Below, piece by piece: positions 57,791 through 64,000 of a stretch of 64,000 nt of DNA. The translations under genes and the position numbers were made by a program. The notes beneath the pieces were generated by a model. That model was not told the origin of the DNA. It saw only the letters and a list, made by a program, of their open reading frames with translations, and made no database searches. Origin of the DNA: an uncultured Oceanospirillaceae bacterium (lineage in GTDB: Bacteria; Pseudomonadota; Gammaproteobacteria; Pseudomonadales; Balneatricaceae); the NCBI GenBank assembly GCA_965366045.1, contig CBDUDU010000001.1, positions 20,044 through 84,043 of the forward strand. The letters are read 5' to 3'. Every line of letters begins with the position of its first letter. Position 1 is the stretch's first letter.

Positions 57791-58182
57791 TTGGTCCACT
57801 CGACTAATCATATGGTCAAGTGATTCTTGTGTGTATGGTAGTGGTAGTAGGTCGTTAAAATAACGGCCGTCGGCGGAAATCCAACTCAAATGTTCAGAAA
57901 TAAGCACGGCTCTATGTCTTCAAATAGCGCTTTTAAGGACTTTATGTGATCTAAGTTTAGCGGGTCGGCAGAGCCTAACGACAGGCCAATACCATGACAA
58001 CTAATGGCGTAGTTATGCCGTATTTTGCGGAGCTGATAGTGCCTCTTGCTGTCTTCTTGAAGGTAGTTTTCGTTGTGTGCTTCTAACCAATTTATACTTG
58101 TTGTTGAGTCCATAAAATGGGCGACATGGGGCTGCCGCAAGCCGATGCCCGTGCCTAATAAGGGTAGGCTTGAATAGGCCAT
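57785..58182 (-). pseudogene. DUF692 / MNIO (BufB-like), frameshifted and truncated
   Basis: GIGLR.PH, W.E.H.ENY, HGIGLSLGS; -1 frameshift near 57899 continues as SEHLSW...YFNDLLPLPYTQESL...VDQTQ and then breaks. Confidence 0.85.
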
Positions 58183-58271
58183 GTCGAACACTCCGAGGTA
58201 TGAAGAAAAAATAGGCAAAAGCAAAATTCCCGTTTAGATAATTTACGGCCTAGACAGGCACATCGGTTTAA

Positions 58272-58868: not shown

Positions 58869-60119
58869 ATGTTTAACAAGTCAGACCGTATTAGTGACTT
58901 TGACCCGGAGATTTGGTCAGGTATTCAAGAAGAAGAGCAGCGCCAAGAAGATCACGTTGAGTTGATCGCTTCAGAGAACTACACCAGCACCCGCGTAATG
59001 CAGGCTCAAGGTTCTGGCTTAACTAACAAATACGCAGAAGGCTACCCGCATAAGCGTTACTACGGTGGTTGTGAGTACGTAGACAAGGTTGAAGTGTTGG
59101 CTATGGAACGCGCTATGAAGTTGTTTGGCGCAGACTACGTTAACGTACAGCCTCACTCTGGTTCACAAGCAAACGCCGCTGTATACCAAGCCTTAGTTTC
59201 TCCTGGTGATACTATTATGGGTATGAGCTTGGCACATGGTGGTCACTTAACTCACGGTTCCCACGTCAACTTTTCTGGTAAGAACTACAACGCTATCGGT
59301 TACGGCTTGAACGATGCTGGCACCTTGGATTACGATGAAATTCAGCGTTTAGCTACTGAGCATCAACCGAAGATGATCGTGGCTGGTTTTTCTGCATACT
59401 CACAAGTAATGGACTGGGCTCGATTCCGCGTAATCGCAGACAGCGTTGGCGCCTACCTATTTGTAGACATGGCTCACGTTGCTGGTTTGATCGCTACAGG
59501 TCATTACCCTAACCCAATGCAATATGCAGACGTTGTCACTACAACTACTCACAAGACACTACGTGGCCCACGTGGCGGTTTGATCCTTGCTAAAGCTAAC
59601 GAAGCGATTGAGAAGAAGTTGAACTCAGCCGTGTTCCCAGGCCAGCAGGGTGGTCCTTTGATGCACGTTATTGCTGCTAAAGCCGTAGCCTTCAAAGAAG
59701 CGCTAGAGCCTTCTTTCACTGAATACCAAGGCCAAGTCTGTGCCAACGCTAAAGTGATGGCAGAAGTATTCCAGTCTCGCGGTTACAAGATAGTTTCTGG
59801 CGGTACTGAGAACCACTTGATGTTGGTAGACCTTATTGCCAAAGGCATTACTGGTAAGGCCGCTGATGCGGCGTTAGGTAAAGCATTCATCACTGTAAAC
59901 AAGAACTCTGTTCCTAACGATCCTCAGTCCCCGTTTGTGACTTCTGGTATTCGTGTCGGTACACCAGCTATTACTACTCGTGGCTTTGGTGTTGAAGAAG
60001 TTCGCAACCTTACTGGTTGGATGTGTGACGTGATGGACAACATCGATGACGAAGCCCTAAACACGGAAGTACGTGGTAAGGTTTCTGAGCTTTGCGCACG
60101 TTTCCCTGTTTATAAATAA
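58869..60119 (+). CDS. glyA: serine hydroxymethyltransferase
   Basis: [34 protein letters not shown]. Confidence 0.98.
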
Positions 60120-60320: not shown

Positions 60321-60942
60321 ATGATTATGCCAAAATTCGAACCGATTCTCGATCAAGCGTTAGCGCGAAAAAAACGGTGAATAAGGACTTGATGCTTTAA
60401 TCTCTGAGCCTTTGTCTGCGCCACGTTTCCTTGAGCAAACGGATGACCGATTTTTTGTCCATGATGACTAAGGTTGTGTTTCAGGCCGGCTTTGTGTGGC
60501 GTGTTATTGACCATAAATGGTCGGATTTTGAAACGGTATTTTTTGGTTTTGATCCCGGAAAAATTATTTTACTAAGTCCAGAGCAGTTAGAAGGATTTGC
60601 TAAGGATGCACGCATCGTCCGTAACTTACAAAAGATAATGACGGTGCCTCATGTAGTCAACTACATTGTCGAGCTGAGTCGTTTACACGGCAGCTATGCG
60701 GCGTTTTTACAGCAGTGGCCTAAGCACGATCTTGCGGGGTTTTATCGGCACTTGAAGCAGGCCGGTAGCCGGCTTGACGGTATGAGTGGGCCACGGATAT
60801 TGCCAATCAGCCTTCCAATAAAAGTGATGTTGCTAAGGTGTCGGATTGTTTTAACCAGTGGCAGGATGAAATGGGTTATTCCTACAATCGGTTAAGCCGT
60901 ATGTGCGCGTGTTCTGTGGGAGAGAATTACACGCCTAAATAG
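60321..60942 (+). pseudogene. DNA-3-methyladenine glycosylase I-like pseudogene
   Basis: DDRFLS.MTK.VFQAGFVW.VI..KW..FE..F.GFDP, IVRNLQKI, GSRL.G; 5' frameshift and stop, internal deletion near 60800, C-terminus resumes in another frame (FNQWQDE...SR..A.SVG). Confidence 0.75.
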
Positions 60943-61007: not shown

Positions 61008-61889
61008 TTAAGCAGTAGGTAACTCAACGTTGTTATGACGACATGTAGCCACCATTGTGTTGTATAACAAACATGCAATGGTCATGGGGCCAACACCACC
61101 AGGAACTGGAGTGATTGCGCCAGCTACTTTTTCGGCACTTTCAAAATGAACGTCGCCAACTAGCTTGGTTTTGCCTTCTGGTGTTTCGATGCGGTTGATA
61201 CCTACGTCGATTACAGTGGCGCCTGGCTTAATCCAAGAACCTTTAACAAGTTCAGGAACACCTACGGCGGCTACTACGATGTCAGCTTCACGAACTACGG
61301 CTTCAATGTCCTTAGTGCGCGAGTGAGCCACCGTTACAGTACAGCTTTGCTGTAGCAACAAGTTGAACATTGGCTTGCCAACGATGTTAGAACGGCCAAC
61401 AACAACAGCGTTCATGCCCGTAAGGTCACCATGGTAGTCTTGTAGCATCATTAGGCTACCTAATGGAGTACAAGGAATCATGCCTTCGCCGCCAGTAGAT
61501 AACATGCCTACGTTAATTGGGTGGAAGCCGTCTACGTCTTTTGCTGGGTCAATGGCTTCTAGTACCTTGGCAGAATTGATGTGCTTAGGTAATGGCAGTT
61601 GAACCAAAATGCCGTTGATGGCAGGGTCGTTGTTCATGTCATTAATTAAGTTAAGCAAAAACTTTTCTGATGTGGTGTCTTCTAGCTTGTGCTCAATAGA
61701 TGTAATGCCACATTCTTTGGCTTGTTTGCCTTTGCTGCGCACGTACACTTGGCTGGCTGGGTCTTCGCCCACTAGCACAACCGCTAGGCCGGGAACGATG
61801 TTGTGGTCTGCTTTTATAGAAGCGATTTGACCGGTCATTTTTTCACGTAATTTAGCAGCAAACTGCTTGCCGTCAATAAGGTGTGCCAT
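61008..61889 (-). CDS. folD: methylenetetrahydrofolate dehydrogenase/cyclohydrolase
   Basis: [45 protein letters not shown]. Confidence 0.97.
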
Positions 61890-62281
61890 GATGGGATAGC
61901 TCATGTTGGTGGGTAAAACAGCCGTTTTGAAACCTGTTCAAATACCGACTGACAAATTCGACGTGTATTTTAGCCTAATTTTTATACGCTTGTTAGCGGG
62001 TATGCGCCAAATTAGTGGTCTGAAGGGCTGCTTTGGTAAATTATTTACCTGAATTTGATTCAGGCACCATGGGTAATACTCAAGTAACACAAGGGTTTGG
62101 TCGTGCTATGATGCCGTCTTCCCAAGCGGGTCGCAGATTCGACATGGGTCGCGTTTCGATAATGCTTTGTCGTAGTCGAGTTAGCTCAAAAAGGTCATCC
62201 TAGATAATCTAGCGGCCATTACATCGCCATGTGTTGAATCGTCAATACTAGGCAGTTATTTTCCTGCAGGAGTGGTACCTA

Positions 62282-62980
62282 ATGTCCGATGATCAGTACG
62301 AAGAAGACCTCGACCTCAATAGCCTTAATGATGAAGAGCTTAGTGAGCAGATGCACGACGATCTTTATGATGGTATGGAAGAAGAGATTGCCGAAGGTAC
62401 TAACATACTACTCAGTCGTGGTTGGTCACCTAGCCGAGTGCTAAACGACGCTTTGGTAGCGGGCATGACCATTGTAGGCGTTGACTTCCGAGACGGCATT
62501 TTGTTTGTGCCAGAGGTGTTGATGGCCGCTAACGCAATGAAAGCGGGCATGGCTATCTTACGTCCGTTGTTGGCCGAAACAGGTGCAGAACCTGTGGGCA
62601 AGGCGATTATCGGTACTGTTAAGGGCGACATTCACGACATCGGCAAAAACCTAGTGGCCATGATGTGGGAAGGCGCTGGTTTTGAAGTGATCGATCTAGG
62701 CATCAACTGCCCGGTAGAAAAGTACCTTGAAGCGCTTGAAGAACACAAACCCGATATTTTGGGTATGTCTGCGTTATTGACCACCACCATGCCTTACATG
62801 AAGGTGGTTATAGACACCCTTAAAGAGCAAGGTATTCGTGACGACTTCTTAGTATTAGTTGGCGGTGCGCCACTTAACGAAGAGTTTGGTGAAGCCGTAG
62901 GCGCAGACGCCTATTGCCGCGATGCTGCCGTAGCCGTAGAAACAGCGAAGAAGTTAATCGCTGAAAAACGCGCAGCCTAA
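62282..62980 (+). CDS. stand-alone corrinoid (B12-binding) protein, MtbC-like
   Basis: cap domain plus GTVKGDIHDIGKNLV, GMSALLTTTM, VGGAP. Confidence 0.92.
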   Translation: MSDDQYEEDLDLNSLNDEELSEQMHDDLYDGMEEEIAEGTNILLSRGWSPSRVLNDALVAGMTIVGVDFRDGILFVPEVLMAANAMKAGMAILRPLLAETGAEPVGKAIIGTVKGDIHDIGKNLVAMMWEGAGFEVIDLGINCPVEKYLEALEEHKPDILGMSALLTTTMPYMKVVIDTLKEQGIRDDFLVLVGGAPLNEEFGEAVGADAYCRDAAVAVETAKKLIAEKRAA

Positions 62981-62999
62981 GGCCTTGGTGGGGTAACCC

Positions 63000-63626
63000 A
63001 TGCAGCCAGCTAGCCTGCTTATTATTACATGCGGCGCCATCGCTCGAGAAGTAATGGCTGTTGCTAAGAGTAACGGCTGGCAACATTTAAAAGTCACCCA
63101 AATCCCAGCCGAGTTACATAATCGGCCGGATCAGATTCCTGCGGCCGTTGAAAAACGCTTGCAGGCGTATGCCGCAGATTACGATCATGTATTTGCTGCG
63201 TTTGGGGATTGTGGTACCGGTGGGCGATTGGACAAAGTGCTGGATAAGTACGGTATTCAACGCTTGTCTGGTGCGCACTGTTACGAATTTTTTAGTGGTA
63301 GCGACAATTTCGCCGCCATGGCGGAGCAGGAGTTAGGTACGTTTTACCTAACTGATTACCTGGCTAAGCATTTTGAACAGCTCATCATGGAAGGTATGGG
63401 CTTGAACAAACATCCAAAACTCATTGAGTTGATGTTTGCGCACTATAAAAAGCTGGTATACCTAGTGCAAGACCCCGACCGACAGTTAGATCATTTTGCT
63501 GAGGCGGCGGCTGATAAGCTAGGTTTGGAATATGAACGTGTTGAAACAGGGTACGGCCAAATGGCCCAAGAACTGAGCACGCATTATAGCAATTACACAG
63601 AGCAGGTAATTAAATGGCCAACCTAA
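63000..63626 (+). CDS. DUF1638 domain protein
   Basis: I.CGA.ARE, LHNRP..I, .GDCGTGG.LD, GAHCYEF, GTFYLTD.L. Confidence 0.85.
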   Translation: MQPASLLIITCGAIAREVMAVAKSNGWQHLKVTQIPAELHNRPDQIPAAVEKRLQAYAADYDHVFAAFGDCGTGGRLDKVLDKYGIQRLSGAHCYEFFSGSDNFAAMAEQELGTFYLTDYLAKHFEQLIMEGMGLNKHPKLIELMFAHYKKLVYLVQDPDRQLDHFAEAAADKLGLEYERVETGYGQMAQELSTHYSNYTEQVIKWPT

Positions 63627-63913
63627 TCATCGTCATGTGGCGTGACATTCCCGCCCAAGTTATCGTTAAGCAAGGCCGAAAAAGCGCCAAGCGCCCCCTT
63701 GAAGAACGTTTTGAAAAAGCCGTAGATAAAGCCGCAATGAGAGCGGGCCTTTACGGTAGTGATGGGTATTTGTCGGAATGGCGTCGTGATACCACGAGCT
63801 GTGGAGATGACTTGGAAGCGGTGCTAGAAGCCACGGTCACGCAAATACAAACAGACTACACAGATGAACGCCTAGCCGTGCTAGTTGCAGCTGGCGGCGT
63901 TGCTGAAAAATAG
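63614..63913 (+). CDS. 'virulence factor' family small protein of corrinoid clusters
   Basis: WRDIPAQV, L.ERFE.A.D.AAM, YL.EWRR. Confidence 0.8.
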   Translation: MANLIIVMWRDIPAQVIVKQGRKSAKRPLEERFEKAVDKAAMRAGLYGSDGYLSEWRRDTTSCGDDLEAVLEATVTQIQTDYTDERLAVLVAAGGVAEK

Positions 63914-63976
63914 CCGATAATTAGCTGAATCATTGGTTGCAAAACCAGTGTTATTTTCTTTTTTGGAGAAGTACCT

Positions 63977-64000
63977 ATGGCACTAAATGCCGTCGCAGAA
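63977..64000 (+). CDS. start of the next operon gene (3'-partial, unidentified)
   Basis: GGAG RBS plus ATG; only 8 codons are visible. Confidence 0.45.

Follow-up and report, generated by a model that had tools for sequence, protein, structure and literature searches.

The window analysed here, 64,000 nucleotides of the genome of an uncultured Oceanospirillaceae bacterium (C1:20044-84043), ends within an operon whose six-gene core, mtgC-DUF1638-PF13769-metF2-mtgD-RACo, very probably serves as the common hub of an aerobic MtgBCDE-type network in which methyl groups are transferred by way of cobalamin. The system as such is already known: MtgBCDE was published in 2018 and 2025, the later paper including marine Gammaproteobacteria. 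Our analysis uses gene content, orthology, synteny, motifs and distribution, and from these we infer the substrates, the direction of the flux, the regulation and the role of the small PF13769 protein. It is in Ruegeria and Phaeobacter that genetics and proteomics have shown MtgC and MtgD to act in two roles and RamA and DUF1638 to be needed.

The original prediction had placed a corrinoid protein, a DUF1638 protein and a small 'virulence factor' in one operon running on past the end of the window. Three co-directional open reading frames (ORFs) are indeed found there, and genes for a protein resembling methylenetetrahydrofolate reductase (MTHFR), a pterin-binding methyltransferase and a RACo-type activase come next on the contig. 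Beyond position 64000 the coordinates are those of the contig and of locus L002 (C1:80000-99999), whose positions become window coordinates on addition of 59956. The core genes, with lengths in amino acids (aa), are as follows.

62282..62980, + strand: mtgC, stand-alone corrinoid protein, 232 aa (PF02607, E 1.8e-18; PF02310, E 2e-27)
63000..63626, + strand: DUF1638 protein, 208 aa (PF07796, E 1.7e-29)
63614..63913, + strand: PF13769 ('Virulence_fact') protein, 99 aa (PF13769, E 8e-24)
63977..64000 (5' end), running to C1:84962 (L002 4021-4962), + strand: metF2, type 4 MTHFR, 313 aa (Pfam MTHFR, 19 bits)
C1:85030-85926 (L002 5031-5927), + strand: mtgD, methyl-tetrahydrofolate:corrinoid methyltransferase, 298 aa (NF005719, 360 bits, cut-off 259)
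C1:86017-88047 (L002 6018-8048), + strand: RACo/RamA-like (AcsV/RamA-like) activase, 676 aa (Fer2 and RACo linker, middle and C-terminal domains)

In this series 19 nt separate mtgC from the DUF1638 gene, the latter overlaps the PF13769 gene by 13 nt, and metF2, mtgD and the activase gene continue in the same orientation, each 63-90 nt after its predecessor.

It was shown for Phaeobacter inhibens that a three-part methionine synthase also needs a RamA-like protein and a DUF1638 protein, for the role of which there was 'no specific proposal' (Price et al., PLoS Genet 2018, PMC5764234). In Ruegeria pomeroyi DSS-3, neither the synthesis of methionine nor the demethylation of glycine betaine is possible without MtgC and MtgD; MtgB is a PF06253 enzyme, MtgE the homocysteine module, and N-osmolytes induce MetF2, RamA and DUF1638 (Mausz et al., PNAS 2025, PMC12478193). 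The same study reports mtg genes, frequently arranged in operons, from marine Alpha-, Gamma- (SUP05) and Deltaproteobacteria, puts the share of carriers without MetH at about 70%, and counts up to seven PF06253 paralogues per genome (PMC12478193). Our genome shares the whole parts list, that is the corrinoid protein, the pterin-binding and homocysteine methyltransferases, multiple PF06253 enzymes, RamA/RACo, DUF1638, a divergent MetF2 and the lack of MetH and MetE. It differs in that the core is one operon here against at least three loci in roseobacters, and in its host, a streamlined genus of 'Oceanospirillaceae' metagenome-assembled genomes (MAGs) that is not named in the main text of PMC12478193.

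The draft genome comprises 2.31 Mb in 125 contigs, is 96.4% complete and has a guanine-plus-cytosine (GC) fraction of 0.484. All the partners foreseen by the original prediction are present in it: besides the MetF-like, pterin-binding and RamA/RACo-like proteins of the operon, there are seven MttB genes (PF06253) and one homocysteine methyltransferase gene elsewhere. MttB enzymes need a corrinoid partner, and in a profile search of the genome MtgC was the single PF02310 match. The seven MttB genes are open frames without internal stops, share 22-61% pairwise identity, and score 249-324 bits against the cut-off of 525 of the pyrrolysine MttB model (TIGR02369), which places them outside that type. 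The paralogue on contig C99 is 67-74% identical to the MttB adjoining MtgC in 33 loci of other taxa and would be the likeliest glycine-betaine enzyme (MtgB). Four of the MttB genes, on C86, C46 (two) and C18, adjoin DAO-FAO_M-GCV_T proteins of 805-823 aa, an architecture of dimethylglycine (DMG) and sarcosine dehydrogenases; one MttB gene has an FMN/FAD oxidoreductase as its neighbour, and regulators of the LysR or AraC type lie near several. Downstream of the C18 gene, at C18:25720-27676 (L020 11720-13676), a 428-aa FrhB/FdhB-like protein (F420 hydrogenase beta-type) and a HutD-like protein are encoded, an unusual pairing for an aerobe and a possible redox partner.

On the methionine side, MtgD is the one pterin-binding protein of the genome apart from FolP, and the one homocysteine S-methyltransferase (PF02574) is a stand-alone protein of 348 aa on contig C117, unlinked to the operon. 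A check for a fused metH, foreseen by the original prediction, revealed neither its reactivation domain (PF02965) nor MetE (PF01717) in the genome. The homocysteine, pterin and B12 domains are found on three separate proteins, each of which gives a partial match of 145-157 bits to TIGR02082; the modules are homologous to those of fused MetH, the latter being reactivated through an S-adenosylmethionine/flavodoxin domain and the present system through an ATP-dependent protein of the RACo type. Since no MetH or MetE was found, the MtgC route is most likely the only methionine synthase of the cell. At C22:22086-23785, cobS (cobalamin-5'-phosphate synthase) is directly followed by the canonical metF, an adjacency that links the biosynthetic MTHFR with B12 synthesis genes. 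Because CobN and CobS are both present, the organism probably makes its own cobalamin.

We propose that the system would work as follows. One of the seven MttB-family enzymes would demethylate glycine betaine, or a quaternary amine related to it, and place the methyl group on the Co(I) of MtgC; MtgD would hand it to tetrahydrofolate (THF). MetF2 would then oxidise methyl-THF to methylene-THF, with FolD taking the oxidation further, while the DMG/sarcosine-dehydrogenase-type enzymes beside several of the MttB genes would strip the remaining methyl groups. Running in reverse, MtgD could load MtgC with methyl-THF supplied by the canonical MetF, and MtgE (the C117 protein) would make methionine. 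The RACo/RamA-like ATPase, with its 2Fe-2S domain, would re-reduce cobalamin oxidised to Co(II), presumably aided by the DUF1638 protein, and a GbdR-like regulator encoded next to the operon probably induces it with betaine-type compounds. The original prediction had spoken of a route from betaine- or dimethylsulfoniopropionate-type osmolytes to methionine or the folate pool; the partner genes support its betaine part, and nothing points to dimethylsulfoniopropionate. The oxygenase route to betaine demethylation was also considered: four Rieske oxygenases of the genome (C2:85044-86234, C2:90186-91313, C62:3253-4395 and C17:25611-26888) reach 107-156 bits against the cut-off of 670 for the GbcA equivalog (GbcAB), and these may be other N-demethylating oxygenases for methylated amines.

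The corrinoid protein in the centre of this scheme carries the motifs of His-on B12 binding, DxHxxG (GDIHDIG), SxL (SALLTT) and GG, and is 73-85% identical to the corrinoid proteins of syntenic clusters across phyla. Its first 30 residues have a net charge of -13, and none of the 1241 ORFs of at least 250 aa in the genome reaches -10. The opposite charge is found on its supposed partners: MtgD, RACo and the C117 homocysteine methyltransferase each have five Arg among their last 15 residues (background 1.9% of long ORFs), and six of the seven MttB paralogues have at least four Arg in the first 20 residues (background 2.2%), the arginines of the C8 paralogue lying slightly further in. Such tails are missing from MetF2 and from the DUF1638 and PF13769 proteins. 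This pattern fits an electrostatic docking of the methyl-transfer and repair partners on MtgC.

In its chemistry the system resembles the anaerobic MtgB/MtgC/MtgA glycine betaine:THF pathway (Desulfitobacterium hafniense, Methanolobus, MttB paralogues of Eubacterium limosum), where a methyl group likewise passes from an MttB-family enzyme to a corrinoid protein and on to THF through a methylcorrinoid:THF methyltransferase, and where one corrinoid protein serves several MttB paralogues and a RamA-type activase is employed. The present host, in contrast, is an aerobe, and DUF1638, PF13769, a type 4 MTHFR and a link to methionine synthesis are added. The distance is visible in the scores of MtgC on the two anaerobic MtgC models, 213.6 bits against a cut-off of 370 for NF047996 and 179.2 against 310 for NF047995, neither of which is reached.

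For the synteny analysis, 80 loci from species-representative genomes were collected by means of a PF13769 protein alignment. The order MtgC, DUF1638, PF13769, MTHFR genes, MtgD and RACo recurs in Alphaproteobacteria (Kiloniellales, Dongiaceae, many Rhizobiales), Betaproteobacteria (Rhodoferax, Rhodocyclaceae), Gammaproteobacteria (SUP05, Steroidobacteraceae, sponge symbionts) and, beyond these, in Actinomycetota (Planktophila) and Chloroflexota. The MTHFR slot is filled by a pair of acetogen-type MetV (PF12225) and MetF (PF02219) in 47 loci and by a single type 4 MetF2 in 17, including the window's genus, Kiloniellales and roseobacters, and it is empty in 9.

Closer to the window, where the near relatives are MAGs labelled 'Oceanospirillaceae bacterium', DUF1638 is present in 23 of the 24 other species of the genus (the exception being 53% complete), in 5 of the 16 genera of the family (g1, the window's genus, 10/10; g190, 9/10; g192, 1/1; g193, 1/9; g197, 1/9) and in 1 of the 16 other families of the order. 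That relatives would normally use a fused MetH, as the original prediction assumed, holds for the family, PF02965 being found in 14 of its 16 genera. The two exceptions are g1 (0/10 in the family sample) and g192 (0/1), both of which carry DUF1638, and no PF02965 was detected in any of the 25 genomes of the window's genus, four of which are single-contig assemblies. Genomes of this genus that are at least 90% complete measure 1.9-3.2 Mb, against 3-6 Mb in most other genera of the family. The pattern fits a loss of MetH in lineages that already possessed the split system.

How the module came to this genus is another matter. A recent horizontal acquisition from a Rhodobacterales- or Rhodospirillales-like donor, in line with the word 'acquired' in the original prediction, would agree with the patchy spread just described, with the highest identities outside the genus being those to Kiloniellales/Rhodospirillales (59-65% for PF13769, 50-57% for MetF2), and with the MetV and MetF pair that other gamma- and betaproteobacterial clusters have in place of MetF2. 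We nevertheless consider it unlikely. The module is carried by nearly the whole genus, and its local GC fraction of 0.47-0.51 is unremarkable against that of the genome. In a maximum-likelihood tree of concatenated MtgC, MtgD and RACo (37 rows, 1220 columns) the window's clade falls inside a gamma/beta group (SH-aLRT support 95) beside SUP05 and sponge-symbiont Gammaproteobacteria, with all Alphaproteobacteria apart (95). The PF13769 tree is unresolved, and the approximately unbiased (AU) test does not reject the gamma/beta grouping (p 0.655). Acquisition is therefore not shown, and the patchy spread fits either loss or an old transfer. We also tried a mosaic origin, in which an alphaproteobacterium had supplied the PF13769-MetF2 segment; an early hint of this in the PF13769 tree was not upheld by the AU test, the constrained tree being in fact the better one, and we dropped the idea.

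Several observations weigh against the proposed hub and should be taken into account. In this organism the hub is deduced from its genes, and the substrates of the seven MttB paralogues are presumed. The orthology of MtgC to SPO2160 and PGA1_c13350 is deduced from synteny and from its identity to the cluster proteins of other taxa. The genome is a fragmented draft, with mtgE and several mttB genes on short contigs. No match above the cut-off was obtained in it for PurU at the end of the one-carbon oxidation route. Finally, with 482 bits the C117 protein exceeds the cut-off of 338 set for NF005718, the model of 'betaine--homocysteine S-methyltransferase' (BHMT), so that a direct BHMT route to methionine might exist.

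From the last point a purely catabolic hub might be imagined, in which the corrinoid system feeds the folate pool and methionine comes from the C117 protein as a true BHMT, as proposed for SAR11, or from uptake; the lack of linkage of the C117 gene to the operon would agree with it. It appears rather improbable to us, for the closest solved relative of the C117 protein is the homocysteine domain of MetH (Thermotoga maritima, 1q7m, 150 bits), the solved BHMTs reaching 47-55 bits, and its homologues with 51-59% identity adjoin MttB-MtgC clusters in seven loci (L046, L076, L088, L091, L098, L102 and L115). It has been argued that the BHMT-like family is MtgE and is devoid of the betaine-binding residues (PMC12478193), and P. 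inhibens needs the orthologue family, along with the corrinoid protein, to make methionine (PMC5764234). Independent support comes from the charged tails: because the C117 protein shares the poly-Arg C-terminal tail of MtgD and RACo, it would be a client of MtgC, that is, MtgE. As a separate observation, a 157-aa ORF next to mtgE, on the minus strand of C117 (L021 1063-1536), corresponds to positions 344-494 of the 495 of carnitine 3-dehydrogenase.

The MTHFR of the operon bears on the direction of the flux. MetF2 matches PDB entry 7xg9 with a phmmer E of 1.4e-46 over residues 5-297, and a profile of 14 MetF2 orthologues does so with E 4e-80. The entry holds S6MTHFR from Sphingobium lignivorans SYK-6, the enzyme on which type 4 was founded; it oxidises CH3-THF with hardly any reaction towards NADH, and its electron acceptor has yet to be identified (Yu et al., Commun Biol 2025, PMC11868366). 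The likeness comprises full-length homology, the motifs that keep NADH out and promote the oxidation of CH3-THF, and the coupling to a demethylase that makes methyl-THF. Kept in MetF2 are FLPG (Leu-Pro, loop b2-a3), HCGVG (Cys, helix a8) and YPLGGL (P-x-G-G-L, loop b8-a11); in place of the phenylalanines F269 and F215 of S6MTHFR, the window's genus has Leu in the last motif and His in helix a8, and its MetF2 has a 12-residue insertion relative to S6MTHFR. The partner demethylase also differs, being corrinoid/MttB-based here and LigM/DesA for S6MTHFR. A further type 4 comparison is offered by the MetF2 with which Methylobacterium CM4 degrades chloromethane (cmu pathway). Because of the type 4 homology and the motifs kept, the MTHFR of the operon appears to be made for oxidation, that is for catabolism, with the canonical MetF available for biosynthesis.

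That the operon is only a housekeeping replacement of MetH, used little or never by the seven MttB enzymes, is very improbable: it would accord with the missing MetH and MetE, with the fixation of the module in the genus and with MtgC, MtgD, RamA and DUF1638 being methionine-synthesis genes in P. inhibens (PMC5764234), but MtgC is the sole corrinoid protein for seven intact MttB enzymes, the in-operon MTHFR is of the methyl-THF-oxidising, non-NADH type with the canonical MetF elsewhere, folD and the GbdR-like regulator flank the operon, and all seven MttB have Arg-rich N-termini that would complement the acidic tail of MtgC. A hub serving both betaine demethylation and methionine synthesis is the reading we prefer.

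A conserved member of this hub that still awaits characterisation is the PF13769 protein, annotated in Pfam as a virulence factor. In most of the 80 loci, which belong to five classes or phyla, its gene follows that of DUF1638 and precedes those of MTHFR and MtgD. In a phylum sample of 301 genomes PF13769 was found in 23 and DUF1638 in 43, the latter being present in all 23 genomes with PF13769; in the control set, the PF13769 model also exceeds its cut-off in Bacillus subtilis, which is without DUF1638 there. In the roseobacter family (five of five genomes examined) the PF13769 gene is apart from MtgC-DUF1638 and heads an operon of PF13769, MetF2 and MtgD, which also occurs in two named Phaeobacter inhibens chromosomes; RACo is not near PF13769 in four of the five roseobacter loci. 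The MtgD of our operon is 53-63% identical to the product of the roseobacter gene downstream of PF13769-MetF2. Because of its co-occurrence with DUF1638, its kept place upstream of MTHFR/MtgD and its staying with MetF2-MtgD when the cluster is split, the PF13769 protein would be a real accessory component on the folate side (MtgD/MTHFR).

Going further, we tentatively suggest that the Mtg hub cannot do without this misnamed 'virulence factor', which would be a previously undescribed subunit on its folate side and may partner MtgD and/or the MTHFR; we regard this as possible, though on balance doubtful. It may set the balance between methyl-THF oxidation and methionine, or couple MetF2 to its electron acceptor. 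Our literature searches for PF13769, IPR025989 and SPO1861 returned nothing relevant, and PF13769 is absent from the main text and the examined supplementary files of PMC12478193. In the R. pomeroyi proteome table of that paper, SPO1861, the neighbour of MetF2 (SPO1862), is entered as an 'uncharacterized protein'; it is GBT-induced and rises significantly under two of the four N-osmolyte conditions (PMC12478193). It is probably the PF13769 orthologue, which could not be confirmed, the homology search having returned Phaeobacter and Ruegeria species and no named R. pomeroyi entry.

Structural comparison gave the PF13769 protein no solved relatives. Its AlphaFold2 model (mean predicted local distance difference test score, pLDDT, 94.8) has a four-stranded sheet and three long helices; a PDB profile search returned nothing below E 0.2, the best Foldseek E was 0.09 and the best VIA-align Z score 3.7. 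A three-chain prediction of PF13769, MetF2 and MtgD scored 0.00 and is not used as evidence either way. Four singleton proteins in which PF13769 is fused to other domains (one to Fer2 and the RACo linker) were set aside as probable gene-calling artefacts.

For the DUF1638 protein we found C11, H40, C71, H93 and C94 to be invariant in 22 orthologues, which suggests a metal or Fe-S site. The AlphaFold2 model (pLDDT 90.2) shows a two-lobed Rossmann-like fold that is generic in comparison: VIA-align Z scores are at most 8.5, with racemases, binding proteins and de novo Rossmann folds level at the top, and a PDB profile search gave no match. A chelatase was considered; the Foldseek hits to ferrochelatase/CbiK (E about 3e-3, TM score about 0.3) are suggestive, not significant, and we make no assignment.

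Next to the operon, a divergent folD and a nearby glyA, both named in the original prediction, are borne out by Pfam and NCBIfam matches, and folD adjoins the cluster also in loci L028-L030, L062, L113 and L115.

58869..60119, + strand: glyA, serine hydroxymethyltransferase, in one-carbon folate context (PF00464, E 1.8e-172; NF000586, 653 bits, above cut-off)
61008..61904, - strand: folD, methylene-THF dehydrogenase/cyclohydrolase (PF02882 and PF00763; NF010785, 478 bits, above cut-off)
61905..62281: divergent intergenic region, 377 bp, presumed promoters of folD and mtgC
C1:88013-88855 (L002 8014-8856), + strand: M50-peptidase-like ORF, 280 aa, overlapping the end of the RACo gene by 35 nt
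C1:88881-89939 (L002 8882-9940), - strand: gbdR-like AraC regulator, convergent (GbdR model, 464 bits, cut-off 480)

An unrelated leu operon lies beyond the gbdR-like gene. The M50-like ORF is outside the conserved core: it is kept in the closest relative (L028) and not in L029 and L030, where the gbdR-like gene directly follows RACo. In the 377-bp region between folD and mtgC no Rfam family reached the gathering score, a B12 riboswitch included, and a promoter scan gave one promoter-like site per strand, no more than in shuffled sequences. A terminator-like hairpin with a T-rich tail is present at 63931-63950 (+ strand; L002 3975-3994), in the 63-nt gap between PF13769 and metF2, and might split or attenuate the operon; in the terminator scan such sites were no more frequent here than in shuffled sequence. 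Two ORFs upstream look truncated. The one at 60431-60895 (+ strand, 154 aa), between glyA and folD, matches positions 31-117 of 177 of the 3-methyladenine glycosylase I profile (E 6e-11) and is probably a remnant of tag. The other, at 57886-58224 (- strand, 112 aa), covers the first 85 of the 263 positions of the MbnB/TglH/ChrH (DUF692) profile, a truncated gene for the modification of ribosomally synthesised peptides.

What our analysis adds to the known system concerns PF13769 and DUF1638, the type 4 assignment of the MTHFR, the charged tails of MtgC and its presumed clients, the pattern of MetH loss in the family and the seven diverged MttB paralogues. The genus is a tidy natural case for the published proposal that marine bacteria can dispense with MetH when they have a common B12 hub: in this gammaproteobacterial family, the only genera without MetH are two that carry the module and have the smallest genomes. 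Such organisms would depend wholly on cobalamin and on this operon for their methionine, and the turnover of betaine-type osmolytes, one-carbon oxidation and the methionine supply would all hang on one protein of 232 aa.

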